63,027 bases of DNA from an uncultured Bacteroidales bacterium. GTDB taxonomy: Bacteria; Bacteroidota; Bacteroidia; Bacteroidales; JAFGXI01. Under the pieces are notes generated by a model. That model saw only the letters and a list, made by a program, of their open reading frames with translations, searched no databases and had not been told where the DNA came from. The position numbers and the translations under genes were made by a program. Position 1 is the first letter of the stretch; each line of letters starts with the position of its first letter. The stretch lies in the NCBI GenBank assembly GCA_947311115.1, contig CAMZKE010000017.1, forward strand, positions 1 through 63,027, given 5' to 3'. Below are positions 15,794-32,082 of this stretch, piece after piece.

Positions 15794-16804
15794 TTATAAG
15801 TTAAAATCTAAATTATTTTCGTAAGCATTTAAAACAGTAATACAATTAAGTAAGTCGGGATTTACCCGTTTATTATGCTTTGTAGATTGTTCGATAGGCG
15901 TATATGCCGGTGTTTTATGAATAATACCTACCATTACATTAGTTTTACCTTCAAGCAATCCTTTTACAGCGTGTATGCCTAAATACGAAGCTAAGTTTCT
16001 ATCGAAAGCAGATGGCGAACCACCACGTTGAACATGACCTAAAACAGTTACCCTAATATCATCGTAATGCTTGTAATCTTTTTTCACAAGTTCTGCTATT
16101 TTATATGCACCTCCTGCATCATCGCCTTCGGCAACAATAATTATTCCACTCGATTTTTTTCTGGAATAATCTTCGTTAAGATATTTTTTTAATTCGTCAA
16201 TATGCGTTTCTGCTTCAGGAATAAGGACAGCCTCTGCCCCTGTTGCAATACCTGAACGTAATGCCAAAAAGCCGGAGTCACGTCCCATAACTTCAATAAA
16301 AAACAACCTGTTATGAGCACCTGCTGTATCTCTAATTTTATCAACAGCATCAACAACTGTATTTAATGCAGTATCGTAACCAATGCAATAATCGGTACCA
16401 TACATATCGTTATCAATAGTTCCGGGTATTCCAATAACCGGAATATCATATTCTTGGCTAAAAAAATCAGCACCTCTAAAACTACCGTCGCCACCAATAA
16501 TGATTAATGCATCAATATTATGCTTTTTAAGGTTTAAATATGCTTGTTTGCGTCCTTCTTCAGTTCTAAATCTGCTACTGCGAGCTGTTTTTAAGAATGT
16601 ACCCCCTCTGTGTAAAATATTTGCAACATCTCTTGATTTAAGTCTATGTATTTCATTATCAATCATACCTTTATAACCTTGATGTATTCCAAATACTTCT
16701 AGTCCATTATGTATTCCCGCTCTAACAACAGCTCTAATTGCAGCGTTCATACCGGGAGAATCGCCTCCGGATGTAAGTACACCTATTCTTTCTATTTTTT
16801 TCAT
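15794..16804 (-). CDS. pfkA: ATP-dependent 6-phosphofructokinase
   Basis: This 336-aa ORF has IGVLTSGGDSPGMNAAIR, GGDGS, PGTIDND and MGR motifs. Confidence 0.92.
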   Translation of the reverse strand: MKKIERIGVLTSGGDSPGMNAAIRAVVRAGIHNGLEVFGIHQGYKGMIDNEIHRLKSRDVANILHRGGTFLKTARSSRFRTEEGRKQAYLNLKKHNIDALIIIGGDGSFRGADFFSQEYDIPVIGIPGTIDNDMYGTDYCIGYDTALNTVVDAVDKIRDTAGAHNRLFFIEVMGRDSGFLALRSGIATGAEAVLIPEAETHIDELKKYLNEDYSRKKSSGIIIVAEGDDAGGAYKIAELVKKDYKHYDDIRVTVLGHVQRGGSPSAFDRNLASYLGIHAVKGLLEGKTNVMVGIIHKTPAYTPIEQSTKHNKRVNPDLLNCITVLNAYENNLDFNL

Positions 16805-16822
16805 TACAATATGTTTTTATAC

Positions 16823-16854
16823 AAAAAAAGTTGACCTCAATAAAGTCAACTTTT
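16823..16854 (-). terminator. Terminator closing the 27127->16875 operon
   Basis: The stem GTTGAC/GTCAAC is extended by A/T pairs. On the minus strand it is followed by TTTTTTTG. It lies 21 nt after the stop at 16875. Confidence 0.6.
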
Positions 16855-16874
16855 AATATTATTTTATTAACTTA

Positions 16875-17303
16875 CTAATCTATCATTGATAATATACCAA
16901 CAGCACAACCGGATTTACCTCCTTCAAAAGATATTAATACTTTATATACTGCTGTTTTTTTACAGATAAAATCAAATGCAGGATAATGTTTTTTACCCAT
17001 ATATGATGAGCCCATAAGTCTGTCCTTATCATAAAGCTGAACTATAGCTTTTCCGCTAAATTCTTTAGCATTACAAACACTAATTCTATAATGATTTCCT
17101 TTATTTAACATTAATGAATACCTAGCTATAGGAGCTTTTTTACCTGCTTCTTTTGCTTTAAGTTTTACTTTTAGCTCTTTAAGATACATTGCATTTTTTG
17201 CTAAACCACTTGAGCAAATAGTTACTAATGAACTATTGCATTGCGATTTAACTACAAAAACAAAAACAATTAAACTTATTAATATAATGACTATTTTTTT
17301 CAT
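16875..17303 (-). CDS. Small secreted Cys-containing protein, unknown function
   Basis: This 142-aa ORF has an N-terminal signal-like helix MKKIVIILISLIVFVFVV and several Cys residues. It starts 14 nt after the upstream gene. Confidence 0.5.
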   Translation of the reverse strand: MKKIVIILISLIVFVFVVKSQCNSSLVTICSSGLAKNAMYLKELKVKLKAKEAGKKAPIARYSLMLNKGNHYRISVCNAKEFSGKAIVQLYDKDRLMGSSYMGKKHYPAFDFICKKTAVYKVLISFEGGKSGCAVGILSMID

Positions 17304-17317
17304 AGTTTAAAATCTAA

Positions 17318-18238
17318 TTATTTAACAATAAAATTTCTAACATTCTCTACCTCTGTAGCAATACTATTTATTTGTTCATCAGTAATATTAACAATACTAG
17401 TTTCATTTTGTACAATTGTTAATATTCCATCAACTTCAACAGCTTCAGGTTCGCCAACTTCATAGGTAATAGTAACTTCTTTAAACAAATCTTTAATTTT
17501 ATTTATTTTTTCAATTAGTTCAAAAAACTTTTTGTTTCTTTTAAAATTATTAAGAATTAACAACAAATCGTTCATCATTAGTTTTTGTTCGCCAATTCTT
17601 TCTGCAATTTCCTTATTTGGAGTTTCTTTAACTACTTGTGTAGCCAAGTATAAACCTTCTAGCCAAACACCTGTTACAATTAAAGCACTTACATCGCTTC
17701 TATTGTTTTCTCGTAAAAACACATCCATTTGGTCGAAACTACTAACCGATATATACATTAGTGAATCTAAATTATCACTGTTTGTTGCCAAGCGTTTTAA
17801 TGTAGAAAAATCGAAAAATTGCCCAACCTTTAAATTATCTGATAATGTTTTAATCGATGTTATATAAGATAATACAGTACCAGTTTTATTATACATATTT
17901 AGATACCCTAAATCAGCACCATAAATACCTAAATTTAAAGCTTGTTCAAAACCTGTATTATACGAATCAATATTATCAGAAGAATTTAGGTACTTGTAAT
18001 TAAATTGAGCTCCACTTTCTTTTATTAATGATGCCATTTCTACGGGAGATGACATATTTGAAATAATTCCTTCCATTGCCTGTTCGGAAACAACTAAAGG
18101 TTCATCATCTGCCAATACCGAATCAGGTACTGAGAAATCGTCGAATCCATCAGATTCTGTATTTTCTGACGTGCCACCGCAAGAAAACAGAAGCGATAGT
18201 GCCACAACGAAAATAAAAAATTTACTAATTCTTATCAT
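17318..18238 (-). CDS. Lipoprotein, unknown function
   Basis: This 306-aa ORF has a lipobox LLFSC at residues 16-20, followed by an acidic linker. Confidence 0.55.
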   Translation of the reverse strand: MIRISKFFIFVVALSLLFSCGGTSENTESDGFDDFSVPDSVLADDEPLVVSEQAMEGIISNMSSPVEMASLIKESGAQFNYKYLNSSDNIDSYNTGFEQALNLGIYGADLGYLNMYNKTGTVLSYITSIKTLSDNLKVGQFFDFSTLKRLATNSDNLDSLMYISVSSFDQMDVFLRENNRSDVSALIVTGVWLEGLYLATQVVKETPNKEIAERIGEQKLMMNDLLLILNNFKRNKKFFELIEKINKIKDLFKEVTITYEVGEPEAVEVDGILTIVQNETSIVNITDEQINSIATEVENVRNFIVK

Positions 18239-18287
18239 ATTTTATTTATTTGATTGTAAAATTAAAAAAAAATCTTAGATAAAAGAA

Positions 18288-21200
18288 TTATTTCTTAAAT
18301 CTAAACTCTAAAACACGTTTAAATATATTGAAATACAAGAAAATATATAATATTAAAGTTAATATCCAAACAACTATTATATTAAAGTAATAAGTATCGA
18401 AAAATCTACCTGCAAAGTATTTTTGAGGTGCATAAAAGTGACTTCTAAAGTCTAAAAAGTGAGTTGGCGATGGGTCTAAATATATTAAATCAACTTGCTG
18501 TATTAATTTATCACCATCTTGAATAATTTTATGCTGTTCAAAAACCTTTTTTACAATATCTGAAATACTTTGATTATAGTAATTATCTTTATTTAATTTA
18601 TAAACATCACCTTTTTGTTCGGTATAATAATCTATCATTCGTTGCTTTTTATCGTAAGCTTTTTGAAACATTATACCGTAATACTTATTTAAGTCATCTA
18701 AATAACTATTTGCCATATATAGAATATAATCGTTTAGTGAGTCACGACTTATTGATTGAATTAAGTTATTACTCACTCCTTTCATTAATGGCTTTTGTTT
18801 GGTAAATTCGTGTCTTACCATAGCTAAATTAATATCAACTTTCGATACTATATCATCTCTTTTATTTTCAACATTATCGAAGCAATATTGTAATTTTTCT
18901 TTAACTTCAGGTATATAGTAAACTTGCATAAAGTTAGCTACACTCATTTTCTTTTCTACATCAAAAAACTGTCGTTCAAATTTATTATCTTTAAACTGAT
19001 GAACCATTAATGCTTCATACATCCATTTTGATGTCATAAACTCAGCTATAAGCGGTACTTTATCGATACTACTAACAGCTTTATTCAATTTTTCGAAGCT
19101 AAACATAGCTCCTCCTAATATCATTTGAGGAATTAGCACTAAAGGTATTATAATATAAATAGTTACAGCCGAATTAAATGTCGCAGATATATTTAATCCA
19201 AGCATATTAGAAAAGGCAGCCGTTGTAAACAAGGCCAGCCAATAATACATATTCATATCTCTAATACCTAAAATATAGTTACCAATAAGTACAAAAAAGC
19301 CTGTTTGTATTGCTGAAATTACAAATAATATAGTAACTTTTGAGAGCAAATAACTCGACCTGCTAAGATTTAAAAACGATTCTCGTTTAAGAATTTTGCG
19401 GTCTCTAAAAATTTCTTCGGCACTAACTGTTAGCCCTAAAAACATTGCTACCACAATACTCATAAAAATATATGGTGGTATATTTTCGTTTTCACGATAA
19501 ATATAGTGAGAAGAATTTGGGTCGGCTATATAACGTATAATAAATGAAAGAATTACCGATAATATAGGTGCTTCTAACATGTTTAATGCTATATACTGTG
19601 TATTACTTATTTTTGATAAAAAATCGCGAGTCAAATAAATATATATTTGGCTTAACCAACGTGGAATATTTAATGACTTTGGGGGTTGCTCGTCAACTTC
19701 CTCAAATGTATCTTCTATTTTGTTTTTTTCATATAAGTCTGACCACTCTTGCGGGTTTACTTTTCTATCTTCTTGATATACTCCATACTCATCAACTACA
19801 CGAGCCTCAATAATATTAAAAACGAGTTCAGGATTAACATTACCACAAAGCGAACACTCTCCTTCATCGCTATTAATTTGAGCATCTAATCGTTTAAAAT
19901 ACATTACCGACTCAATAGGATTACCGTAATAAACCTGATACCCACCGGTATCTAATACAATAACCTTATCAAACATTTTATAAATATCAGACGATGGTTG
20001 ATGTATTACTACATAAATTAGCTTTCCTTTTAATGCTAATTCACGAAGCAAATCCATAACATTTTCTGAATCGCGCGATGATAAACCTGAAGTAGGCTCA
20101 TCAACAAATAAAATTGAGGGTTCTCGTATTAATTCAAGTGCAATATTTAATCTTTTTCGTTGTCCACCACTAATTAATTTGTTTAAAGGGCTTCCTACTT
20201 TTAAATTTTTACGTTCTAAAAGTCCTAAATTTTTTAATGTTTTGTTAACAAGCTTAGTTAATTCTTCTTTATTTTTATCTCTAAAACAAAGCTTTGCACT
20301 ATAATATAGGTTCTGAAATACAGTAAGTTCTTCTATTAATAAATCATCTTGCGGAATAAAACCAATAACGCCTTCTGTTTTTTCTTTTTGCTCGTATAAA
20401 TTATAACCATTTATTTCAATGCTACCAGCCGAAGGTTTATTCATTCCGGAAAGCACATTTAGTAATGTAGTTTTACCTGCACCACTTGCCCCCATTATTG
20501 CAATAAGTTTACCTTGATTTTCGTTTATATTAATATTTCGTAAACCTAAGGCACCATTAGGAAATTTATATTCAATATTTTTGGCAACGTACGATATATT
20601 AACAAAATTGTTATCCTTTTTATATTGCGATATTACATCGCTATAATATATTGGTTTACCTTTCGAGAGTTTTAATGTACTTCCGTTTGCAAATACGTTA
20701 ATTCTTTTCCCATTAACTATTAAGCCGTTAAGATAAAATTCTAAATCGCCGGTATAACGAATAAAATATTGTTCTGTATTTTCTATTTGAAGAATTATTA
20801 ATTCACCTTCAATGCCTTTCATATTTATAGAAAGACAGCTTTTATTATTCGTTTCTTCTGATGATATTATTAATAAATCTTCAGAACATTTTAATTCCTC
20901 AATATTTTGAGAGAACACAAATGTTTCAATATTTTTTACATCTTTAACATCAATATTAAAAACTTCAGCAACGGTATGAATAATAGCCATTCGTTGCTCG
21001 GTAAATTTTCTGTCGGAATTTACCAATTCGAATAAACGAACTAACACAATAACTTTTTGTTTTTGTGTTAGTGTTTTATTAATTTTTTTTGATATTCCAA
21101 GAATTTTAACCGAATCGCCAACTGAGGTTAATTTACGTTTCTTTTTAGGTTTTACATCCTCAATATCAGTATTATCTAATTCTTTTTGTTTTTTAGAATA

Positions 21201-21368
21201 ACCTGACTTTTTATCGAAAAGCTGTAAATATTCTTCAACTTTTGAGCCAGAAACTTGCTGACGAAGAGTTAACATAACAAAGTCACGCTCACTATCTTCA
21301 ACACCATCATCTTGTTTTGCAATTATTGCATATAATTGCATCAAAGCTTTTAGAATTTCTTCACTCAT
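18288..21368 (-). CDS. ABCG-type fused ATPase-permease with an N-terminal TerB-like region and a possible FHA-like beta domain
   Basis: This 1026-aa ORF has two TerB-like half sites in aa 1-150 (IIAKQDDGVEDSERDF; LVNSDRKFTEQRMAIIHTVAEVFNI). Aa 160-250 are beta-rich (YLNGLIVNGKRI...GSTLKL). It has Walker A GASGAGKTT, signature ISGGQRKR and Walker B LFVDEPTSGLS. Multiple TM helices follow, then a ~230-aa tail with a final TM. Confidence 0.75.
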   Translation of the reverse strand: MSEEILKALMQLYAIIAKQDDGVEDSERDFVMLTLRQQVSGSKVEEYLQLFDKKSGYSKKQKELDNTDIEDVKPKKKRKLTSVGDSVKILGISKKINKTLTQKQKVIVLVRLFELVNSDRKFTEQRMAIIHTVAEVFNIDVKDVKNIETFVFSQNIEELKCSEDLLIISSEETNNKSCLSINMKGIEGELIILQIENTEQYFIRYTGDLEFYLNGLIVNGKRINVFANGSTLKLSKGKPIYYSDVISQYKKDNNFVNISYVAKNIEYKFPNGALGLRNININENQGKLIAIMGASGAGKTTLLNVLSGMNKPSAGSIEINGYNLYEQKEKTEGVIGFIPQDDLLIEELTVFQNLYYSAKLCFRDKNKEELTKLVNKTLKNLGLLERKNLKVGSPLNKLISGGQRKRLNIALELIREPSILFVDEPTSGLSSRDSENVMDLLRELALKGKLIYVVIHQPSSDIYKMFDKVIVLDTGGYQVYYGNPIESVMYFKRLDAQINSDEGECSLCGNVNPELVFNIIEARVVDEYGVYQEDRKVNPQEWSDLYEKNKIEDTFEEVDEQPPKSLNIPRWLSQIYIYLTRDFLSKISNTQYIALNMLEAPILSVILSFIIRYIADPNSSHYIYRENENIPPYIFMSIVVAMFLGLTVSAEEIFRDRKILKRESFLNLSRSSYLLSKVTILFVISAIQTGFFVLIGNYILGIRDMNMYYWLALFTTAAFSNMLGLNISATFNSAVTIYIIIPLVLIPQMILGGAMFSFEKLNKAVSSIDKVPLIAEFMTSKWMYEALMVHQFKDNKFERQFFDVEKKMSVANFMQVYYIPEVKEKLQYCFDNVENKRDDIVSKVDINLAMVRHEFTKQKPLMKGVSNNLIQSISRDSLNDYILYMANSYLDDLNKYYGIMFQKAYDKKQRMIDYYTEQKGDVYKLNKDNYYNQSISDIVKKVFEQHKIIQDGDKLIQQVDLIYLDPSPTHFLDFRSHFYAPQKYFAGRFFDTYYFNIIVVWILTLILYIFLYFNIFKRVLEFRFKK

Positions 21369-21411
21369 TTATTTAGTTGCTATTTTATTTATTATTTTAA
21401 GCTAAAGTTTA

Positions 21412-21792
21412 TTACGATTCGTAACTAACCAATTCAATTGGTACATCAACAATATCAGCATATTCTTCGCCAGCTTCTTCCATATCTTCATCATCATCAG
21501 GGAAGTACCATTTTACAAGAACTTCTTTATCGTCTTCGTGCATTTCTTCTAATTTCATTAATACATCTAAAAGTAATTTTGATGAAGCTGTATTGAAATA
21601 CTCTAATTTGAATTCAAAAACAATCTTTTTAGAGTATTCTTCGGCAAGCTCTTCAAGCCACTCTAAAATTGGATCATAAAAAGCTGTAACATCTTCAGGC
21701 ATTGAACGTCCTGATATTTGGAATATTCCATTTTCGGCATCTAATATTACGCTAGGGATATCATCTCCACCTTGTATTTTTATTGCTTCCAT
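21412..21792 (-). CDS. SiaC-like DUF1987 partner-switch phosphoprotein
   Basis: This 126-aa ORF has the motif LEYFNTASSKLLLDVLMKLEE, which matches the DUF1987/SiaC YLNTSS.K...D.L core. It also has an acidic C-terminus. Confidence 0.7.
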   Translation of the reverse strand: MEAIKIQGGDDIPSVILDAENGIFQISGRSMPEDVTAFYDPILEWLEELAEEYSKKIVFEFKLEYFNTASSKLLLDVLMKLEEMHEDDKEVLVKWYFPDDDEDMEEAGEEYADIVDVPIELVSYES

Positions 21793-21797
21793 AATAT

Positions 21798-22373
21798 TTA
21801 TTTTTTTCTTTGAATTACTGTGGTTAATATAAAAAATGATGTATTATCATCTACTTTCTTAAAACTAAAATCTAGTTGAGAACCTGTTTTTCTTGCTATA
21901 TCAATAAAACCAAGACCAGCTCCTTTTTTTTCTGACAGTTTTCCTTCTCTAATTTGTTGTTTATACAATGCTTTTAGTTCATCTTTATTCATGCCGTTTA
22001 ACATTTCTAAAGACTCTCTTAGCCCAACAACATTTTCTTCAGCAATTAAGTTGCCTGTAGTTATTTTATAAACTTCATCGGTTTTATGTACCATAAAAAT
22101 CCCCCTACCATCTTTTGAGTATGATTCTGAAGGATTCTCGGCATGTTTACTAATATTTTGTAAACATTCAACCATAACATGAAAAACTTTTCGCTGTGTA
22201 GCTCCTGATTCTTCATCATCATTCATTTTTTTTTCTGTAAGCGAAGTAAATGCTTTTGTAATACTATGAGTAATTTCGCCTTCGTAAACAAGGCTAATAT
22301 CATTATCCCTCATAGTTTTATGAAACTCCATTACTGCATCTAAAAATGACTTATTTATTTTATTACTTTCCAT
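21798..22373 (-). CDS. SiaB-like (anti-sigma/HATPase-like) protein kinase
   Basis: It has N-box-like ECLQNISKHA and G-box-like KGAGLGFIDIARKTG. I prefer the ATG at 22373, 10 nt after the upstream stop, over the TTG at 22400 in the ORF track. Confidence 0.65.
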   Translation of the reverse strand: MESNKINKSFLDAVMEFHKTMRDNDISLVYEGEITHSITKAFTSLTEKKMNDDEESGATQRKVFHVMVECLQNISKHAENPSESYSKDGRGIFMVHKTDEVYKITTGNLIAEENVVGLRESLEMLNGMNKDELKALYKQQIREGKLSEKKGAGLGFIDIARKTGSQLDFSFKKVDDNTSFFILTTVIQRKK

Positions 22374-22383
22374 AAAAAATATT

Positions 22384-25017
22384 TTAAAATTCAACACCAA
22401 TCATTAATATATCATCAATTTGTTTATTCTCAGCTTTCCAATTTACAAATTCTGTTTCAAAATATTCAGAATATTGCGACATTGAAAATTTATTATTTTT
22501 AACTATACCTTCTCTAATTTGTTTTGCTTGATATTTCTTTCTATTTGGACCTCCTATTTGATCTGGATAACCATCAGAAAAAATAAATATTTTATCTCCT
22601 TTTTTAATATCAATTATATAATTAGTAAAGTTCTTTTCTTTTTTCTTTTTGTGAGGAATTCCTCCAATTGCTTTTCTGTCTCCTTTAAACTCTTGTAATT
22701 CGCCATTTCGTAGTAAATATAATGGTCGGTGAGCACCGGCATAATATAATTTATTTTCGTTTAAATCGTAACGACAAAGTGCAACGTCCATACCATCTCT
22801 ACTATTAGCACCTTCTACATCTTGACGAAGTGTTTTACGTACTCCATGATGTAAATTATCAAGTATAACACCTGAGTCTAATACTTTTTTGTGGTCAACA
22901 ATATTATTTAACTGGAAATAACCGATAAATGATAATAATGCTCCCGGTACACCATGCCCTGTACAATCTACAGCTGCAAAATATATATTATTATCGCGTG
23001 TAAACATCCAAGGGAAATCACCACTTACTACATCTTTTGGTTTGTAGAATATAAAAGAATCTGAGAAGTAGCTTTGTAAGTTAGTAGTTTTTGGTAATAT
23101 AGAACCTTGAATACGTTTAGCGTAGTTTATACTCTCTGTTATTTTTTTATTTGTATTTTCAATCTCAATCTCAATTTCTTTACGTTCGGTAATATCATGT
23201 GCAACTATAAGTACAGTTTCTAAATCTTTATTTTCATTAAACTCAGGAATAGAATTTACCGACATATAACGCTTACCAAGGTTACTATCTAGTTCAAATT
23301 CATTTTCTTGAATAATAGGATTGTTAATCAGCAAATGTAAAGCATTAGTGAAAAAATTAACAATTTCCGTATCAACTTCAGAGTCTGTAATAAGTTTATT
23401 ATTTACAGTTTTTGCATCAACACCTGTATATTTCTCAAAAACAGGATTTACATAATAAATTTTACCCTCTAAACTTAATCGCATTATTAAATCTTGCGAA
23501 TTTTCTGATAAAGCTTGCATTTGACCTCTTCGTCGCTGCTCTTTTTCTGCTAACTTACGAAGAGTTATGTCTCTGGTATTAAATAATATACCGTTGATTA
23601 TTGGATTATCTATTAAATTTCTACAAGTAGCTTCTAACCATATTAGGCTTTCGTCTTTTTTATAATATTCAAATTCAACAGTAATAGGTGATAACGGATT
23701 TTTAATTATATTTTCGAAAGTTTCTTCTACAATTTTTCTTGTTGCTTCCGATACTCTATCTAAACCATTTGTTCCAACAGTTTCGGTATGTGAATAACCT
23801 AATATATTTTTAACCGAAGGACTTTCGTATTTTACAACTCCTTGTTCATCATATATTGTAATTACTTCCGATGCATTTTCTAAAAGAGTATGTTGTCTAA
23901 GCTGTGCATCTTGAACTTCTTTAATTTTTTGTTCTAAATCAATATTTGCTTTTTCAAGTTCTTCTTGAGTAGCAATCATTTCTTCTGCATTCTGCCTTAA
24001 TTCTTCTTCATTTTCTTGAAGTTCTTCGGTCATACGTTGCGATTCGTCTAACAGTTTTTGTGTTTTATAGTTTATTATTAAACTAAATAACGATTGACCA
24101 ATCATATCACTAATACCTTCAACAAAACTTATCACTTTTTTAGACATGCTGTCTTCAATAGCTGCAATTTCAATAACTCCACGTAATTTTTCGTCACTTA
24201 TAAGTGGCACTATTAAAATACTACCCGGCTTTTTTTCACCTAATATTCCTGATGTTATTGTAACATAGCCTTCAGGTATTTCTGTTCTATAAACTGTATC
24301 AAGTTCATAAGCTGCTTGACCAATAAGCCCTTCTCCTATTTTAAACTCTTGTTTTATAAACTTTTTTCTGTTATATGCATAAGATGCATAGTTTACAAGC
24401 ACTTTATTATCTTCGTCATAAATATAAAACGAGCCTTGTATTACATCAACATAATTTATAAGTACTTTTAGTACATTGTATGACAATTCATTAAGGTCGG
24501 TAAATTCCCTAAGTACATTTGATATTTTATCTCTTCCTTTAATTATCCAATTTTGCTCTTTTTCTTTTATTGAAGATGATAATAAATCATTCTTCATTTT
24601 TAATAATACCTTGAATAAGGGGTCTTTTTCATCAAGAGTGTCTTTTACTTCTATATCGTAATTTCCTTTTCCTACCTCTTTTGCAAAGCTGGAAACTTTT
24701 TCAATATATCTTTCTTGTTCTTCTATATATATATCAATTCTTGATTGGTCTTTTTGTATTTTTAAAGCTAATAAATAAGCTACAAAACCTAATATTAAAG
24801 GAGCCATATCAATAATAAAATGCATAGGGTTTTCCATGTGCATTTGCCATATCATATCAATACCATATCCTCTATAAACTAAATCAAAAATCCATGCAAT
24901 AATTGGAAACATAAGTCCAAAAAGCATGCCTCCGACAGGATACCTCCTTGTTTTACAAGAAAGCCCAAATGCTCCGCATTTATTGTTATTGTTATTATTT
25001 ATTTCGCTTGTTGTCAT
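22384..25017 (-). CDS. Membrane-anchored GAF / coiled-coil / 2xPAS / PP2C (SpoIIE, SiaA/RsbU-like) phosphatase
   Basis: This 877-aa ORF has 2 TM helices (aa ~30-85) and a GAF domain (aa ~175-310, GEGLIGQA...ILIVPLI). An EEL-rich coil spans aa 326-356, followed by two PAS-like blocks. The PP2C motifs are KDVVSGDFPW and DCTGHGVPGA, and the C-terminus is QIDDILMIGVEF. Confidence 0.8.
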   Translation of the reverse strand: MTTSEINNNNNNKCGAFGLSCKTRRYPVGGMLFGLMFPIIAWIFDLVYRGYGIDMIWQMHMENPMHFIIDMAPLILGFVAYLLALKIQKDQSRIDIYIEEQERYIEKVSSFAKEVGKGNYDIEVKDTLDEKDPLFKVLLKMKNDLLSSSIKEKEQNWIIKGRDKISNVLREFTDLNELSYNVLKVLINYVDVIQGSFYIYDEDNKVLVNYASYAYNRKKFIKQEFKIGEGLIGQAAYELDTVYRTEIPEGYVTITSGILGEKKPGSILIVPLISDEKLRGVIEIAAIEDSMSKKVISFVEGISDMIGQSLFSLIINYKTQKLLDESQRMTEELQENEEELRQNAEEMIATQEELEKANIDLEQKIKEVQDAQLRQHTLLENASEVITIYDEQGVVKYESPSVKNILGYSHTETVGTNGLDRVSEATRKIVEETFENIIKNPLSPITVEFEYYKKDESLIWLEATCRNLIDNPIINGILFNTRDITLRKLAEKEQRRRGQMQALSENSQDLIMRLSLEGKIYYVNPVFEKYTGVDAKTVNNKLITDSEVDTEIVNFFTNALHLLINNPIIQENEFELDSNLGKRYMSVNSIPEFNENKDLETVLIVAHDITERKEIEIEIENTNKKITESINYAKRIQGSILPKTTNLQSYFSDSFIFYKPKDVVSGDFPWMFTRDNNIYFAAVDCTGHGVPGALLSFIGYFQLNNIVDHKKVLDSGVILDNLHHGVRKTLRQDVEGANSRDGMDVALCRYDLNENKLYYAGAHRPLYLLRNGELQEFKGDRKAIGGIPHKKKKEKNFTNYIIDIKKGDKIFIFSDGYPDQIGGPNRKKYQAKQIREGIVKNNKFSMSQYSEYFETEFVNWKAENKQIDDILMIGVEF

Positions 25018-25031
25018 TCTTTATTTTTTTG

Positions 25032-25766
25032 TTAATGAACATTTATTATGTTCTCCGAAATTTTATTTACAGATTCATTAATAATATTCTTATCATTTTC
25101 GGTAAACTCGTTTAATGAAGCAATTTCGGCTACTGCTACAACACTATTATCTATTATTGCCGGTACTATAAGTAATGATTTAGGATTTCCTTTTCCCAAG
25201 CCTGATAATATTGTAATATAACCATCTGGTATATCATCAATACTTAACATTTTTTTATCTTTTATTGCTTGCCCGATTATGCCATCACCTTCTTCTACGT
25301 TACTTATTTCTTTTTCAGAATAGTAAGCATAGGTACTTATTGGCTTAAAGATATTGTCCTCGCTCTTTAAGTAAAAAACTGCTTGTGCTATATTTAATTG
25401 TTTAGCTAAATTTATTAATTGCTTTTCAACATAATTTTCTGAATTTTGCTCTTTATTTTTTGATGTTATTATTAATTCTTTTGTTTCTTCTTTATCTTCA
25501 ATCATTTCAAATATTTCAGTGTTATCAATACTTTCAACGCTATCATCATTAACATAAACCTCTTTAATAACTTCTACTTCTTTTACTATTGTTTTTCTTG
25601 AAAGTAAATTAATTACTAATAATAGAACTACTAATGCATCAATAATACCAATAAGTACAAACCCATTACTTTCTTTATCTATTGTATCAATTTCTAAATA
25701 CGACAAAATCAGTATTATTGATATTAATACAATATTAGCAATATTTCTAAAATTTAAAGCCTTCAT
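25032..25766 (-). CDS. Membrane-anchored stand-alone GAF-domain protein
   Basis: This 244-aa ORF has 2 N-terminal TM helices. Its GAF block (GDGIIGQA...IPDGYITILSGLGKGNPKSLLIVPAI) is a clear paralog of the GAF in 22384..25017. Its start overlaps the CheB stop by 1 nt. Confidence 0.7.
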   Translation of the reverse strand: MKALNFRNIANIVLISIILILSYLEIDTIDKESNGFVLIGIIDALVVLLLVINLLSRKTIVKEVEVIKEVYVNDDSVESIDNTEIFEMIEDKEETKELIITSKNKEQNSENYVEKQLINLAKQLNIAQAVFYLKSEDNIFKPISTYAYYSEKEISNVEEGDGIIGQAIKDKKMLSIDDIPDGYITILSGLGKGNPKSLLIVPAIIDNSVVAVAEIASLNEFTENDKNIINESVNKISENIINVH

Positions 25767-26323
25767 TATATATTGTTTAAAAAATTAATAATTCCCTGAG
25801 TTGTTAATACTTCATCAGGAGTTGTTATATCAATAGCTGAACTTGGCATTGTTTTTATTTGTGCTTCATTAGGGTCTTGAACTATTACTTTACCACCATA
25901 ATCTTTTATTCGTTTTATACCTTTTGCACCATCTTTATTTGCACCCGATAAAATAATTCCAATTACTTTATCGCGATATGATGTTGCTGCAGAATAAAAT
26001 GAAAGATCTATTGATGGTCTTGAATGATTTACAACCGGTTCGGTTGATAAACTAAATTTTTGACCATATTCTATATACATATGATAATTAGCCGGAGCTA
26101 AATAAACCATTCCTTTTTTTATTATATCTTTATCATACGGTTCAATAATTTGTAAATTAGACTTTAACGCAAGTGCTTCTACAAAACCTGAACGTATATG
26201 TTTTAATCTATGCAAACATAGGAATAATGGTAAATCAAAGTTTTTAGGTAACGAACTAAGTATTTTAGTTACTACCTGAAAACTACCGGCACTACCACCT
26301 ATTATTACAGCTTTATATTTCAT
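25766..26323 (-). CDS. cheB: CheB-type protein-glutamate methylesterase, catalytic domain only (no receiver domain)
   Basis: This 185-aa ORF has IIGGSAGS (Ser), CLHRL (His) and SGANKDGA (Asp) in the CheB catalytic-triad order. Confidence 0.75.
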   Translation of the reverse strand: MKYKAVIIGGSAGSFQVVTKILSSLPKNFDLPLFLCLHRLKHIRSGFVEALALKSNLQIIEPYDKDIIKKGMVYLAPANYHMYIEYGQKFSLSTEPVVNHSRPSIDLSFYSAATSYRDKVIGIILSGANKDGAKGIKRIKDYGGKVIVQDPNEAQIKTMPSSAIDITTPDEVLTTQGIINFLNNI

Positions 26324-26326
26324 TAA

Positions 26327-27127
26327 TTATTTCTTTTTATATATTCGTTCAGTATAACACTCCTCTATAAACTTATCGTTTACAGTTCTATTAATAAGAA
26401 TATTCTCTTTAATCCCGATTATTAGTTTTCCCCCTATTTTCAAACTATTGTATAAATTATTTAAAATAATATTTTGAGCATCATCTTTCAAATATATAAA
26501 TTTATTTCTAAATATTATCATATCTTGATTCTTTGGTAATTTACCGGTGAAAAGGTTCAAATTAATAAAACTTGTATTTTTTTGTAATGATTTTAATAAA
26601 CTATTTTCAAAATATTTGCTTAGTTCATCTTTACCTTCAAATCGTTTATAATTTGCTCTATTTAACTCTATTTGCTTAGGTGATATTTTAACTTCTTTTA
26701 TTAAATCAATAGTTTTGTTAGACCAACTTGATACAGTAATTCTTACATTATCAATTAAATTTAACTCGTTTAATAAAACTAAAAGTGTATAATACTCATC
26801 GCCTGTAGTACATGCCGGTATATATATTTTGTAGTCTTTAAAATCTTTTACTGTTGAAATAAGTTCAGTTTTTAACTTACGCCACATAGCAGGGTCTCGA
26901 AACATTTCGGTAAATGGAACAGCAAAAATTGATAAAAATTCATCTTTGTTAATATTTTCTTTGTTAAATTTTACTGCCAACTCATCTGCATTTCTATACT
27001 CAAACACCTCCATAGTATGAATAAGCCTACTTTTTAACGTAGTTGTTGAAAATACAGAAAAATCTACATTAATTGCAGTTTCTATTATTTTAACTATTTT
27101 TCTTTGTTCCGAAATTGTTAAATCCAT
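26327..27127 (-). CDS. cheR: CheR-type protein-glutamate O-methyltransferase
   Basis: This 266-aa ORF has TEMFRDP (CheR TxFFRD motif) and PACTTGDEYYTL in place of the SAM-site AGCSTGEEPYS. Confidence 0.7.
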   Translation of the reverse strand: MDLTISEQRKIVKIIETAINVDFSVFSTTTLKSRLIHTMEVFEYRNADELAVKFNKENINKDEFLSIFAVPFTEMFRDPAMWRKLKTELISTVKDFKDYKIYIPACTTGDEYYTLLVLLNELNLIDNVRITVSSWSNKTIDLIKEVKISPKQIELNRANYKRFEGKDELSKYFENSLLKSLQKNTSFINLNLFTGKLPKNQDMIIFRNKFIYLKDDAQNIILNNLYNSLKIGGKLIIGIKENILINRTVNDKFIEECYTERIYKKK

Positions 27128-27743
27128 TTAATAGTATTCAAAATTCAATTAATTGACAAAATAAAAAAAATATCTGAATAAAAACGAAAATACACATGTT
27201 TTTTTTACTTAATTAAGTATATTTTTGATTAATCACATTAATCAATTAGATAATTAGGATTAATGACTCTTAGTATTTGAAACGTAAACACCACATTTAT
27301 AAGCTATTATAGGTATTTGCAATAAATTCAAAACTACTTGGTAGTAAATAAATTAAATATTTATTAGCTATTAAATAAACACTTCAATAGATAAGTTTAA
27401 ATAACTAATTAATAAAGTGTTAAATAGAAAATATATGTAAAAGATATTCAACTTAAAATAACTAATGATAGTATAAAAATAAGCTAACAAGTTTTATTAA
27501 ATATATTACATTTAAACATAAATATTTAATATTTTTGTACAAGAATTTAAATACTATATAAATATTTTTAATTAGAATATAATAATAAATATTCCGCCAC
27601 AATCAGACGAGATATAAATTTTGAAATTCAGTTTTTTTTTACAAAATAATAGATAGTAATAAAATACAAACATCTAAAAATTAAAATATTAAGTATTTAA
27701 GATTAAAATATTTTGCTTACATATATTTACAGATAAATAACAT

Positions 27744-28880
27744 ATGAAATCTAAACTACCTAACACAAAAACAAGTATTTTTGCTGTAATGTCTCAATTA
27801 GCCAACGAGCATAATGCAATAAATTTATCTCAAGGCTTTCCCGATTTTGATGTATCTCCTAAATTAATAGAACTGGTAAATAAAAATATGAAATTGGGCT
27901 TTAACCAGTACGCTCCAATGCCCGGAGTAATGAAATTAAGAGAGATTATATCGGAAAAGACCGAGAAATTATATGGAAAATATTATAAGCCTGAAACAGA
28001 AATAACAATTACTTCAGGAGCTACGCAAGCCATTTATACTGCAATAACTACTATTATAAACGAAGGTGATGAAGTTATTGTTTTTGAACCGGTTTACGAT
28101 AGCTATGTACCTGCAATAGAATTATGCGGAGGTACTCCTATTTTTTTAACATTAAAAGGTAAAGATTATAAAATTGACTGGAAAGAAGTACAAAAAGTTA
28201 TAACTTCTAAAACAAGAATGATTATTATAAACTCACCTCACAACCCAACAGGATCAACACTTAACGAAAAAGATATTAAACAATTAGAAAAAATTGTTGC
28301 CGGCACAAATATTATTTTACTTAGCGACGAAGTTTACGAACATATTATTTTTGATGGAAAAACAAATTTAAGTTTTAGTAGCTCAAAAGAATTATCGAAA
28401 CGAAGTTTAATAGTTTCTTCTTTTGGTAAAACTTTTCATACTACCGGCTGGAAAACAGGTTATTGTGTAGCTCCTGAAGAAATAATGAAAGAATTTAGAA
28501 AGGTGCATCAATTTGTTGTTTATGCAGTTAATACACCTTTGCAATACGCTATTGCCGAATATTTAGAAGATGAAAACACATATCTTGAATTGAGCAGTAT
28601 GTACCAAGAAAGGCGTGATTATTTCATAAACTCAATTAAAGGTTCTAAGTTTGAATTAATACCAACATCTGGTACATATTTTCAGCTTTTAGATTATTCT
28701 AAAATTTCTGATGAAACAGATAGTGTTTATGCTGAATACCTTACAAAAGAACACAAAGTTGCTTCAATACCTGTTTCTGCATTTTATCACGATAAAGTAA
28801 AAAGTAAAGTTCTTCGCTTTTGTTTTGCAAAGGGCAATGATACTCTTGATAGAGCTGCCGAACACTTATTAAAATTATAA
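27744..28880 (+). CDS. PLP-dependent aminotransferase, class I/II (YbdL/methionine aminotransferase-like)
   Basis: This 378-aa ORF has INLSQGFPDF, NSPHNPTG and SFGKTFHTTGWK (Schiff-base Lys). Confidence 0.8.
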   Translation: MKSKLPNTKTSIFAVMSQLANEHNAINLSQGFPDFDVSPKLIELVNKNMKLGFNQYAPMPGVMKLREIISEKTEKLYGKYYKPETEITITSGATQAIYTAITTIINEGDEVIVFEPVYDSYVPAIELCGGTPIFLTLKGKDYKIDWKEVQKVITSKTRMIIINSPHNPTGSTLNEKDIKQLEKIVAGTNIILLSDEVYEHIIFDGKTNLSFSSSKELSKRSLIVSSFGKTFHTTGWKTGYCVAPEEIMKEFRKVHQFVVYAVNTPLQYAIAEYLEDENTYLELSSMYQERRDYFINSIKGSKFELIPTSGTYFQLLDYSKISDETDSVYAEYLTKEHKVASIPVSAFYHDKVKSKVLRFCFAKGNDTLDRAAEHLLKL

Positions 28881-29821: not shown

Positions 29822-31180
29822 ATGAGAATTCTACTACTTTTTATAGGGCTACAATTAGGTTTATTTGCCCAAAACGACACAACTACAATAATTATAATGC
29901 ATACCAACGATATGCACGGCTATATTGACAAATATGCCAAAATGAAACCTATTATTGATAGTATAAGAAACAATAATAAAAATACCATTCTTGTTTCTGC
30001 CGGCGATTTATTTTCGGGAAATCCGTATGTTGATAAATACAAAGAACCTGGTTACCCGATGATTGATATTATGAATGACTTAAACTATAAAGTTTCTGCA
30101 TTAGGAAATCATGAGTTTGATTATGGGCAAGAAACAATGCAAAAACGCTTTACTGAAGCTAATTTCCCAATAATTTGTGCGAATATAAACACAAAAAACG
30201 GAATTGTTAAAAATATTATCCCTTATAAAATTATTAATGTAGGAAAAACTAAAATAGCATTTCTATCAGCTTTAAAAATAACAAAAAAAGGTTACCCTCA
30301 AACACTTCCAAGCAAATTAGAAGGTCTAAAATTTAAAAAACCTATTGAAACAATTAATAAATATAAGTTTCTAAAGGACAGTGCTGATATAATAATTGGA
30401 TTAACTCATTTGGGTATTAAAACAGACTCGTTACTTGCTAAAAAAAATAATTTTATTGACATTATTATTGGTGGTCATTCGCATACAATTATCGACTCAT
30501 CAATAATAATTAATAACATATTAATATGTCAAGCAGGTAGTTACAATAATTACTTAGGTGTTTTAACTATTAAAACACTTAATAATAAAATAGTTTACAA
30601 GCACGATACTTTGTATAGTATTATAAATAGAAAAGTTATTGATAATAAAATTGCAAACAAAATTAAGGAATACAATAATAACAAGAATGTAAATAAAGTA
30701 ATAGGTTATTTAAGTAAAACTTTGATATCGCCAAACGAAATTGCCGATTTATTTAATGCTGCTTTTGCTAATGCAACACATTCTGACATTGCATTTATGA
30801 ATTTTGGAGGCATAAGAATCGACACATTAAAAAAAGGAAAAGTTAGATATTTTGACATATACAGTGTTGACCCTTTTAACAACGAACTAATGACGGCAAA
30901 ATTAACTGCTGAAGAAATTAAAGGAATGATTAAATACTCGTATAGTTTTAGAAATAAGCCATCAATAAAAAGTAATTTAAAGTATAAAATTGAAGTAAAT
31001 AATGATGGAAGTTTTAAATCAGTTAATTTCAATAAACCATTAGATAACAGCAAACTATACAAAGTAGTTATAAACTCATATATGGCAACAGCATTTAAAT
31101 TTAATGGAAGTAAAAAATTTACAGATTCCGGTATTCACTCTAACGAAGCACTTGTAAAATTTATTGAAAAACAACGCTAA
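29822..31180 (+). CDS. Secreted bifunctional metallophosphatase/5'-nucleotidase (UshA-like)
   Basis: It has a signal peptide and the metallophosphatase motifs HTNDMHG, GDLFSG, GNHEFD and GGHSH. A C-terminal 5'-nucleotidase-like domain follows. Confidence 0.75.
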   Translation: MRILLLFIGLQLGLFAQNDTTTIIIMHTNDMHGYIDKYAKMKPIIDSIRNNNKNTILVSAGDLFSGNPYVDKYKEPGYPMIDIMNDLNYKVSALGNHEFDYGQETMQKRFTEANFPIICANINTKNGIVKNIIPYKIINVGKTKIAFLSALKITKKGYPQTLPSKLEGLKFKKPIETINKYKFLKDSADIIIGLTHLGIKTDSLLAKKNNFIDIIIGGHSHTIIDSSIIINNILICQAGSYNNYLGVLTIKTLNNKIVYKHDTLYSIINRKVIDNKIANKIKEYNNNKNVNKVIGYLSKTLISPNEIADLFNAAFANATHSDIAFMNFGGIRIDTLKKGKVRYFDIYSVDPFNNELMTAKLTAEEIKGMIKYSYSFRNKPSIKSNLKYKIEVNNDGSFKSVNFNKPLDNSKLYKVVINSYMATAFKFNGSKKFTDSGIHSNEALVKFIEKQR

Positions 31181-32082
31181 TAAAATACCGGTTCATTCAA
31201 ACCTAAATTAAAATATACAGTAGTAGGTTTTACCTTTTGGGCTTCTTTAAATAAATATTGAGAACCATCTTTCTGTAACATAGGTATATGATATTGCTCT
31301 ACACCTATCCATTTTACAGGAAACATATACTGGTCGTGCATTATTTTATTTTGTACCAAATGTCTTATTTTTTCTGAATTGACACCAATATTTACTCTCG
31401 CTACTTGATTGTATGGCAATAACTGTTCAATTTGTAAGCTTGTCAATGATGCTGAAAAATTTCCTAAAACAGATTTATTGGCACTTCTATAACCAAACCG
31501 TGCCGGGTAGTCAGAATCGGTAATTTTTATACTTTTAGAATAATCACCTGTCCAAAAAACAGACTTCACTCCTATTTTTGTATTATTGTATCTATACTCA
31601 AAAACAAATGCTCCGGTTCTATACCTATCTAAAGAACCTTGTTTTAACCAACTAAACAAATCGTTTTCGGTTGCAAAAGTAAATTTATCGATGTTAACAT
31701 TTATTACCCCAACAGCTTGCGATGTACCTTGCTTGTCAAAATAATAAAGAAATGAATAACCAAATGAATTTTTATAATTTGTATTATTCTCGGTTAAACC
31801 AATAAATCTATTTGTTATTATATCATCTTTATTCCAAGCCATTTGCAAGCCAACTCCCATTTGCAACTCGGGAGTTTTACAACTTAATGCTAAAGTTTTA
31901 AAATTATAATATGAATTTACTGATGCATTTACTTGAACAAAATTATATGCATAAAAAGCCGAAACATTAAGCCCTATTCTATTCACTTTATTTCCAAACG
32001 AAAAGCTTAAACCTCCACTTACACCATAGTTCACTATTTGCGAATACGTTGTAGTTGATATTATCATTAACACTTTAAACAT
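31177..32082 (-). CDS. Hypothetical beta-rich protein
   Basis: This 301-aa ORF has alternating aromatic/polar beta-strand patterns and no clear signal peptide. It overlaps the convergent upstream gene by 4 nt. Confidence 0.4.
   Translation of the reverse strand: MFKVLMIISTTTYSQIVNYGVSGGLSFSFGNKVNRIGLNVSAFYAYNFVQVNASVNSYYNFKTLALSCKTPELQMGVGLQMAWNKDDIITNRFIGLTENNTNYKNSFGYSFLYYFDKQGTSQAVGVINVNIDKFTFATENDLFSWLKQGSLDRYRTGAFVFEYRYNNTKIGVKSVFWTGDYSKSIKITDSDYPARFGYRSANKSVLGNFSASLTSLQIEQLLPYNQVARVNIGVNSEKIRHLVQNKIMHDQYMFPVKWIGVEQYHIPMLQKDGSQYLFKEAQKVKPTTVYFNLGLNEPVFY

Follow-up and report, generated by a model that had tools for sequence, protein, structure and literature searches.

A Conserved Bacteroidota Gene Cluster Combining a Predicted SiaABC-Type Switch, an ABC Exporter, and an Accessory CheR/CheB Module

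Protein methylation by the CheR/CheB pair is the textbook mechanism of chemoreceptor adaptation. Partner switches of the RsbU/V/W and HsbA type set a PP2C phosphatase against a GHKL-type kinase on a small phosphoprotein of the STAS family. In the SiaABCD system of Pseudomonas aeruginosa, the phosphoprotein SiaC binds the helical stalk of SiaD, the product of the adjacent gene, unless Thr68 is phosphorylated; this residue is the phospho-acceptor and also part of the SiaD-binding surface (PMC8457831). The CheR-like protein RsbM of Bacillus cereus methylates a signalling helix that follows the (HAMP-)GAF region of RsbK, a sensor that feeds into a PP2C partner switch (PMC4574943), and the FHA-bearing ABC exporter Rv1747 of Mycobacterium tuberculosis is regulated by Ser/Thr phosphorylation (PMC3138270). 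Here we describe a cluster of nine genes that resembles each of these systems in part. It lies on a stretch of 63,027 nucleotides from an uncultured Bacteroidales bacterium (GenBank assembly GCA_947311115.1, contig CAMZKE010000017.1, positions 1 to 63,027), the whole of which we call the window. In order, the genes encode CheR, a CheB catalytic domain, a membrane GAF protein, a sensor phosphatase, a SiaB-family kinase, a SiaC-family phosphoprotein, an ABC transporter, a lipoprotein (gene 8), and a small secreted protein (gene 9; Table 1).

With SiaABCD the cluster shares a PP2C phosphatase bearing a membrane or sensory N-terminus, a SiaB-family kinase, and a DUF1987/SiaC protein in the same order, as well as the N67-T68 acceptor site and an output encoded by the next gene. 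It differs in that this next gene codes for an ABCG-type exporter instead of the diguanylate cyclase SiaD, and in that the phosphatase carries a GAF-coil-PAS-PAS input and is associated with a CheR/CheB module. The likeness to RsbK-RsbM-RsbY lies in a CheR-type gene beside a non-MCP sensor (MCP: methyl-accepting chemotaxis protein) that has a coiled-coil directly after its GAF domain. However, RsbK is a histidine kinase, RsbM is an orphan without an esterase, and the output of that pathway is sigma-B, whereas here the methyl-accepting helix is proposed to reside in the phosphatase itself and the output to be a transporter. Since the cluster encodes a dedicated CheB, the modification would be reversible. 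The Che, Wsp, and Frz pathways have in common with the cluster a CheR/CheB pair and candidate heptad Glu-Glu sites on a coiled coil. In contrast to these pathways, an MCP signalling domain, CheA, CheW, and a response regulator are all missing from this locus, methylation would act on a GAF-PAS phosphatase or sensor, and Ser/Thr phosphorylation would replace His-Asp phosphotransfer. As in the Rv1747/PknF pair, the exporter is ABCG-like with its nucleotide-binding domain (NBD) before the transmembrane domain, has an N-terminal domain of apparently FHA-like fold, and is encoded together with a Ser/Thr phosphorylation system. Rv1747, however, has a pair of canonical FHA domains and is the direct phosphorylation target of a Hanks-type kinase, whereas here one FHA-like fold lacking Arg/His follows a TerB-like bundle, and the signal would arrive by way of a SiaC-type phosphoprotein. 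The opposition of a PP2C phosphatase and a GHKL-type kinase on a partner-switching small phosphoprotein is shared with RsbU/V/W and HsbA, but the phosphoprotein here belongs to DUF1987/SiaC instead of the canonical STAS proteins, and no sigma or anti-sigma factor is encoded.

In the literature searched, RsbK/RsbM was the only relevant studied case of CheR-type methylation outside MCPs, and no paper was found that mentions DUF6272, "SiaB family", "SiaB-like", "SiaC-like", or "SiaA-like". SiaC-type phosphoproteins are widespread, and the same search found an output for only one of them, the cyclase SiaD. Nor did it return a description of CheR/CheB, a SiaABC-type switch, and an ABC exporter in combination. 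The novelty lies in this combination of known signalling modules and not in a categorically new kind of system; the cluster points to an undescribed mode of transporter control.

The evidence that these genes belong together is comparative. With a profile of SiaB homologues we found relatives in at least 582 species-representative genomes. We then compared the 80 closest loci, plus loci fetched via exact protein look-up, by matching the nine proteins of the window to the six-frame open reading frames (ORFs) of each locus, with contig ends allowed for. Nearly all of these loci stem from Bacteroidota (Bacteroidales, Marinilabiliales, Cytophagales), apart from a few metagenome-assembled genomes (MAGs) labelled Chlorobiota, and the 80 closest include Bacteroidota from rumen, gut, sediment, and marine environments. 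The cluster has its closest named relative in a MAG labelled Paludibacter propionicigenes and also occurs in the complete genome of the cultured Fulvivirga maritima (Cytophagales). Among the loci that could be assessed, which are non-redundant at species level, the phosphatase gene precedes siaB in all 67, siaC follows siaB in all 79, and the ABC transporter comes after siaC in 64 of 65; gene 8 is present in 62 of 63, and gene 9 follows gene 8 in 59 of 60. The median gaps within this core are 2, 13, 45, 66, and 6 nt, and the flanking genes vary among loci. Conserved order, short gaps, and varied flanks together mark the six-gene core as a selected unit. The arrangement is far beyond chance, and we have little doubt that the cluster is a functional unit. 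An earlier sequence-only reading of the window, which had singled out the cluster and named conservation of its gene order as a check, is borne out in this respect: the order is kept across Bacteroidales, Marinilabiliales, and Cytophagales, and its remark that a transporter gene, and no diguanylate cyclase gene, directly follows the SiaC-like gene applies to the 64 loci just mentioned. All the computational tests proposed in that reading came out favourably.

Only one locus (L066:5714-12123) has a siaC that is not then followed by transporter, lipoprotein, and small protein. There the ORF of the phosphatase is split too, and the missing genes together with this split suggest a decaying or misassembled copy.

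The CheR-CheB-GAF trio stands directly upstream of the core in 45 loci (one of these has it in divergent orientation) and is missing from 20. It is an accessory module and not integral to the core. The sequence-only reading had placed CheR and CheB in one operon with the switch; 20 of 65 loci lack them. The gene for the membrane GAF protein is always gained or lost together with CheR/CheB and co-occurs with CheB in every CheB-containing locus. Most relatives add a second CheR and an output-less sensor, here called S2, which is composed of a periplasmic or 4HB_MCP module, a GAF domain, a coil, and one or more PAS domains without any enzymatic domain; the window has no S2. A clade of rumen and gut MAGs (L038, L039, L041, L051, L061, L062, L074) lacks CheB and the membrane GAF gene; what it retains is a divergent CheR-like gene, located upstream of S2 on the other strand.

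In the window, the cluster consists of nine minus-strand ORFs from 27127 to 16875, packed and terminated as first described. The gaps, in gene order, are 3 nt (cheR/cheB), -1 (cheB/membrane GAF gene), and 14 (membrane GAF gene/phosphatase), followed after siaB by 5 nt (siaB/siaC), 43 (siaC/ABC), 49 (ABC/lipoprotein), and 14 (lipoprotein/small protein). The phosphatase/siaB junction measures -17 nt if siaB starts at the TTG at 22400 and +10 nt if it starts at the ATG at 22373; the latter start agrees with the lengths of the orthologues (189-193 aa). All nine genes are presumably co-transcribed.

Table 1. Features of the cluster in the window (all on the minus strand)
Feature	Coordinates	Strand	Basis
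CheR-type protein-glutamate O-methyltransferase, 266 aa	26327..27127	-	PF01739, 80.5 bits
CheB methylesterase, catalytic domain only, 185 aa	25766..26323	-	PF01339, 164.9 bits
Membrane GAF protein, two transmembrane segments + GAF, 244 aa	25032..25766	-	GAF_2 match, transmembrane segments
Sensor phosphatase, 877 aa: two transmembrane segments, HAMP-like linker, GAF, coiled-coil, PAS, PAS, PP2C (SpoIIE/SiaA-like)	22384..25017	-	Pfam + NCBIfam
Candidate methyl-accepting coil of the phosphatase, aa 329-358, MTEELQENEEELRQNAEEMIATQEELEKAN	23944..24033	-	alignment of 66 orthologues
SiaB-family Ser/Thr protein kinase (DUF6272), 191 aa	21798..22373	-	NF038262, 185.7 bits (cutoff 85); PF19788, 149.7 bits
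SiaC-family (DUF1987) phosphoprotein, 126 aa	21412..21792	-	PF09345, 136.7 bits
ABCG/ABC-2 type half-transporter, 1026 aa	18288..21368	-	ABC_tran 107 bits, ABC2_membrane 75 bits, TIGR00955 258 bits
Cytoplasmic N-terminal module of the transporter, aa 1-255	20604..21368	-	TerB-like helical bundle 1-152 + FHA-like beta sandwich 165-250
Lipoprotein (gene 8), unnamed family, 306 aa, helical bundle + small C-terminal alpha/beta domain	17318..18238	-	lipobox
Small secreted Cys-containing protein (gene 9), unnamed family, 142 aa	16875..17303	-	hydrophobic signal-like segment 4-22
Intrinsic terminator	16816..16854	-	13-bp hairpin stem then T-run at 16854..16826, 3' of last gene (terminator scan)
Presumed promoter region, AT-rich intergenic, 616 nt, 5' of cheR	27128..27743	-	sequence reading

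Profile scans with Pfam and NCBIfam (29 ORFs of the window were scanned with Pfam) support the assignments to CheR, CheB, GAF, PAS, SpoIIE, SiaB, SiaC, TerB, and ABC that had been read from the sequence, TerB marginally. The PP2C domain of the phosphatase gives 49.7 bits against SpoIIE and 108 bits in alignment to P. aeruginosa SiaA (6K4E), with which it shares the Asp-containing motifs GDF, VDC.GHG, DG.D, SDG, and DDI. Its HAMP-like linker comes from sequence reading and a weak match in the Fulvivirga orthologue. The kinase aligns to P. aeruginosa SiaB (6KKO_A), and its N-box and G-box residues are invariant among 26 homologues. Residues N67-T68 of the SiaC-like protein align onto N67-T68 of P. 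aeruginosa SiaC (6KKO_C), and the segment YFNTASSKLLLD around the acceptor Thr68 is mostly invariant in 82 sequences. Against the NCBIfam equivalog models, the phosphatase reaches 155 bits over its C-terminal 258 residues only (SiaA, NF038263; cutoff 700), the kinase 91.5 bits (SiaB, NF038264; cutoff 225), and the phosphoprotein 86.8 bits (SiaC; cutoff 150); with scores below these cutoffs, the three proteins are family members and not orthologues. The catalytic and acceptor residues are apparently intact, and SiaABC-type phospho-switch chemistry very probably operates. No GGDEF protein such as a SiaD-type diguanylate cyclase was seen among the scanned ORFs of the window or in the annotated related loci.

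Another PP2C sensor phosphatase is encoded in the window at a distance of 3.4 kb downstream (11079-13523, minus strand; TPR repeats and SpoIIE, 814 aa). No cognate kinase or phosphoprotein gene adjoins it, and it might feed into the same SiaC-like protein. In locus L009 a TPR-PAS-SpoIIE protein is encoded directly upstream of cheR.

The transporter comprises an N-terminal regulatory module, the NBD, a six-helix ABC2 membrane domain, an extension of about 200 aa, and a seventh transmembrane segment. The position of the NBD N-terminal to the ABC2 membrane domain is that of ABCG/ABC-2 (type V) exporters, and PDR and ABCG1/2/5 come out as its best relatives in the PDB. Walker A, signature, Walker B, and H-loop motifs (GASGAGKT, SGGQRKR, LFVDEPTSGL, IHQPS) are kept in 66 orthologues. 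Among the non-catalytic parts of the protein, the N-terminal module is conserved best. TerB (PF05099) matches it marginally (25.2 bits, cutoff 24.4), and most homologues have a precomputed TerB match. In an AlphaFold model of residues 1-264 (pLDDT 86), the helical bundle matches the TerB-like protein PG1108 (2H5N; TMt 0.61, Foldseek). The top 16 Foldseek PDB matches of the beta domain (165-250) are all FHA domains, with probability about 1.0, weak E-values (0.013-0.06), and TM-scores of about 0.45-0.56 on the target; the Pfam FHA profile finds no match in residues 157-264 even at E <= 10. No hidden Markov model detects FHA, and the FHA-like fold is supported by fold search only. Within this domain Gly188, Ser197 (Asn in the window), and Asn214-Gly215 are conserved in 37 sequences. 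The extreme N-terminus MSEEIL is near-invariant in loci both with and without CheR/CheB, and we rejected it as a methyl-acceptor for this independence of the two enzymes.

Two observations concern the exporter itself. Just past the NBD, a Cys motif EGEC..CG (aa 502-509; 19843-19866, minus strand) is well conserved in 66 orthologues and may be a metal- or redox-sensitive element. In F. maritima (CP089980.1, L088:10001-13082) the annotation gives the transporter as two overlapping ORFs of 402 aa (TerB and NBD) and 629 aa (membrane domain), which could be a natural split or a frameshift; the transporters of L046 and L084 are in fragments as well.

The best PDB relative of CheR is the Bacillus subtilis enzyme (5FTW, 71 bits), and the alignment covers the region of the S-adenosylmethionine-binding motif. 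CheB lacks a receiver domain, as had been noted from the sequence alone: its gene begins 3 nt after cheR and encodes 185 aa, which leaves no space for one. Its orthologues in annotated loci measure 175-197 aa. Ser11, His42, and Asp150 align with the catalytic motifs of Thermotoga maritima CheB (3SFT), and we take these positions to be the Ser-His-Asp triad. A CheB without receiver can still support adaptation of a chemoreceptor if the rate of modification follows the signalling conformation of the substrate. By analogy, the same reasoning could apply to the cluster described here. Receiver-less CheB proteins have a precedent in the F3 chemosensory class (PMC9239204). The GAF domain of the membrane GAF protein is a paralogue of that of the phosphatase. 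We rejected this protein as the main methyl-acceptor, because only its GAF domain is conserved and a conserved Glu-rich segment is absent; by the same token, it is likelier to be a partner or scaffold than a substrate.

No MCP, CheA, CheW, or CheY was found among the 29 ORFs of the window scanned with Pfam, and no MCP, CheA, or CheW in the annotated related loci (about 80). A crude regular expression for the MCP tip gave 0 matches in the six-frame translation of the window and of about 1.4 Mb of related loci.

A candidate for the methylated segment is the coil that joins the GAF domain of the phosphatase to its first PAS domain; this coil contains heptad-spaced Glu-Glu pairs (ENEEELRQNAEEMIATQEEL). 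The pairs 331/332, 338/339, 345/346, and 352/353 follow each other at an exact spacing of seven residues and occupy heptad positions f and g, with L333, L340, M347, L354, L361, and V368 at the "a" positions. The sequence EEMIAT in this coil fits what we take to be the classical MCP site pattern, EExxA(S/T). In the 45 CheR-CheB-GAF loci the motif ENEE(E/Q)LRQNAEEMRATQEEL is nearly invariant; in the 20 loci without CheR/CheB the coil has decayed to background and reads like KNEDELRKNAEDMKKAQLEL. The mean pairwise identity of residues 332-354 is 0.88 among CheR/CheB-bearing loci vs 0.65 among the others, whereas the corresponding values for the whole phosphatase are 0.65 and 0.63. This contrast indicates that the motif is more strongly constrained than the rest of the protein only in loci with neighbouring CheR/CheB. 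Position 346 is Glu in 44 of 46 CheR/CheB-bearing sequences vs 5 of 20 without, position 352 in 44 of 46 vs 3 of 20, and both together in 42 of 46 vs 3 of 20 (Fisher p = 2e-9, not phylogeny-corrected). Residue 335 is Glu in 45 of 46 of the former and Lys in 14 of 20 of the latter. In the clade of rumen and gut MAGs the Glu-Glu pairs are reduced to Asp-Glu or to a single Glu.

The S2 sensors repeat this pattern independently. Their motif QEEEMRQNMEELxATQEE is intact in 34 of 34 CheB-bearing loci vs 1 of 18 others, where S2 proteins read like REVELRKTMDEMTVARDE. This co-variation with CheR/CheB in both the phosphatase and S2 argues for the coil as the methyl-accepting site. Judged by these alignments, the phosphatase coil is probably a CheR/CheB substrate, which gives comparative support to the idea, first raised from the sequence, that the phosphatase is a target of methylation; in relatives with S2, this sensor may be the main methyl-acceptor.

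When 1.84 billion representatives were searched by phmmer with the 55-residue coil, 209 proteins matched at E <= 0.001. The top matches are GAF-(coil-PAS)n proteins, which repeat the linker as many as nine times and hardly ever contain an output domain. We sampled the genetic context of four: one is encoded beside CheR-CheR-CheB-phosphatase genes, two beside separate histidine kinases, and one alone.

These output-less GAF-(coil-PAS)n sensors form a large family of proteins of up to about 2400 aa with at most nine copies of an EEELRQNMEELxATQEE linker (examples are L005:2449-5127, L038:4662-7253, and L031:489-7322, also P0361-P0400), some with a 4HB_MCP periplasmic module. They adjoin separate output enzymes, namely a SiaA-like phosphatase or, in L089 and L091, stand-alone HisKA/HATPase kinases. 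This arrangement suggests that they are "split" sensors that signal through a partner protein.

From these observations we propose the following mechanism. The SiaA-like membrane sensor phosphatase and the SiaB-family kinase would set the phosphorylation of Thr68 in the SiaC-like protein. One phospho-state of this protein, by analogy to SiaC/SiaD most likely the unphosphorylated one, would bind the TerB/FHA-like N-terminal module of the exporter and thereby switch its ATPase and transport activity. The exporter, to which we assign no substrate, would act together with the lipoprotein and the small secreted protein. Where present, the CheR/CheB/membrane GAF module would reversibly methylate the Glu-Glu pairs of the coil between GAF and PAS of the phosphatase. 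Methylation could alter helix packing, bias the transmission from the transmembrane and GAF region to the PP2C domain, and in this way tune or adapt the output of the phosphatase. We infer the direction of every effect in this chain.

Taken in its main lines, as one signalling-and-effector operon conserved in Bacteroidota, this chain has in our estimate a probability of roughly 0.55. Several points count against it. The mechanism as a whole is a prediction from sequence, synteny, and models. The description of the CheR/CheB pair as MCP-less, which we adopt from the sequence-only reading, applies to the locus; of this genome, the search for MCP and CheA covered the window. The modern consensus for MCP methylation is [ASTG][ASTG]xx[EQ][EQ]xx[ASTG][ASTG]; the pair E345-E346 is followed by xxAT, and the N-terminal pair of small residues is missing (RQ), so that the C-terminal half of the consensus alone is present. 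By a crude tree, the CheB-minus loci amount to about two clades, and as few as 2-3 independent events may underlie the correlation of the motif with CheR/CheB. Individual loci deviate from it: L082 has CheR/CheB and a degenerate phosphatase motif, the rumen clade has a CheR-like gene, no CheB, and a degraded motif, and L035, L048, and L073 have the motif with no CheR/CheB gene less than 7 kb away. The nearest relative of these three, L030, has a divergent module, and so their enzymes may be encoded elsewhere. Three of the four sampled multi-motif proteins (L089, L090, L091) are not next to CheR/CheB, so that the motif may be purely or additionally structural, or served in trans, as scattered MCP genes are. 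In an alternative reading, CheR and CheB act on other proteins, either classical MCPs or S2-type sensors elsewhere, and the phosphatase coil serves just as a structural signalling helix in a particular subfamily. Such a role would fit the abundance of the linker in GAF-(coil-PAS)n proteins far from CheR/CheB as well as its retention in L035, L048, and L073, and in most relatives the dedicated CheR gene adjoins the S2 sensor, not the phosphatase; moreover, some Bacteroidetes possess chemoreceptors (PMC7390727). It accounts poorly, however, for the window, which has no S2 and holds in the phosphatase the sole copy of the motif in 63 kb, for the confinement of the extra constraint to CheR/CheB loci, and for the absence of MCP, CheA, and CheW from the roughly 80 loci. 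Nor does a structural role alone explain why the second Glu of each pair is specifically lost upon loss of CheR/CheB. We consider this alternative unlikely.

The output side of the proposed chain admits a comparable doubt. The positions of the Arg and His that bind phosphothreonine in canonical FHA domains are variable or hydrophobic in 37 sequences (residues mapped by reading the alignment), which is a further point against the mechanism: with these residues missing, binding of phospho-SiaC in the FHA mode is doubtful. Of the FHA-like N-terminus proposed in the sequence-only reading, the fold is tentatively supported by structure search, and the Pfam match and the canonical residues were not found. 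The switch could have its target elsewhere, in a diguanylate cyclase, an anti-sigma factor, or a transcription factor, or the transporter could act upstream and report substrate load. Known partner-switch outputs are sigma factors, cyclases, and secretion regulators, a shared physiological response would suffice to explain co-transcription, and the contact between SiaC-like protein and transporter is putative. Against a target elsewhere stand the constancy with which the transporter follows siaC (64 of 65 loci in Bacteroidales and Marinilabiliales, and also in the cultured Cytophagales genome, with varying flanks), the conserved cytoplasmic regulatory module of the transporter, for which another purpose is not evident, and the lack of any other cytoplasmic candidate target in the cluster; the protein controlled by SiaC of P. 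aeruginosa is the product of the adjacent gene (PMC8457831). On balance we regard a switch that does not act on the transporter as improbable, and we give direct gating of the transporter by the SiaC-like protein, argued from that analogy, an even chance. The chance packing of unrelated genes in this one genome is effectively refuted by order, orientation, and short gaps that persist in about 80 species-level genomes with unrelated flanks, and its likelihood is close to nil. The fullest version of our proposal combines an MCP-independent methyl-accepting system in largely non-flagellated Bacteroidota, the Glu-Glu linker of GAF-PAS sensors and of a PP2C phosphatase as substrate of a dedicated CheR and a receiver-less CheB, which would lend a Ser/Thr partner switch adaptation in the manner of chemotaxis, and a SiaC-type protein that directly gates an ABC exporter through a TerB/FHA-like module; as such a conjunction it is tentative.

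The interest of the cluster lies in a candidate new class of CheR/CheB substrates, with a sharply defined Glu-Glu motif in the phosphatase and in output-less GAF-PAS sensors, and in a candidate new output of partner switching, the post-translational control of an ABC exporter. If true, methylation-based adaptation would be portable and could be coupled to Ser/Thr signalling as a module. Confirmation would reveal which substances these abundant bacteria export in response to sensory input, and the cultured carrier F. maritima makes the hypotheses directly testable.

The last two genes of the core represent two protein families without any annotation. Neither gene 8 nor gene 9 has a match in Pfam or NCBIfam. 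The lipobox of gene 8 is LFSC, and its Cys20 is invariant in 38 homologues; it has 3225 homologues, and among those listed, all with a source name are called "hypothetical". An AlphaFold2 model of this lipoprotein (pLDDT 78.5) has no significant fold match in the PDB, and we rejected the best matches, the EfeO-like Algp7 and PII, at a probability <= 0.2. The cysteines of gene 9 are conserved in 60 orthologues.

The spacer upstream of cheR is unusually long and very AT-rich for a compact genome, and its repeats are unremarkable (low-complexity inverted repeats only). One candidate for a Bacteroidetes-type -7 element, TAGTTTTG at 27329-27336, emerged from a scan for TANNTTTG; this is weak evidence, as the motif is barely enriched window-wide (157 observed vs 126). 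Sigma-70-type promoter matches are not above the shuffled expectation (99 vs 84 +/- 10), and Rfam gave zero matches in 16500-28000.

The cluster is flanked by housekeeping genes, a phosphofructokinase gene downstream and, beyond the spacer, a divergent aminotransferase gene upstream. The remaining window, with a G+C content of about 29%, is ordinary chromosome with genes for aldolase, fumarase, AspRS, Ffh, a UvrD-like helicase, and two tRNAs. Amid these housekeeping genes, a 301-aa protein of polymorphic-toxin type (31177-32082, minus strand) contains a Bacterial toxin 23 (Ntox23) domain (113 bits). A tyrosine recombinase/phage integrase gene at the right end of the window (61768-62874, plus strand) may mark the edge of a mobile element that runs on past this end.

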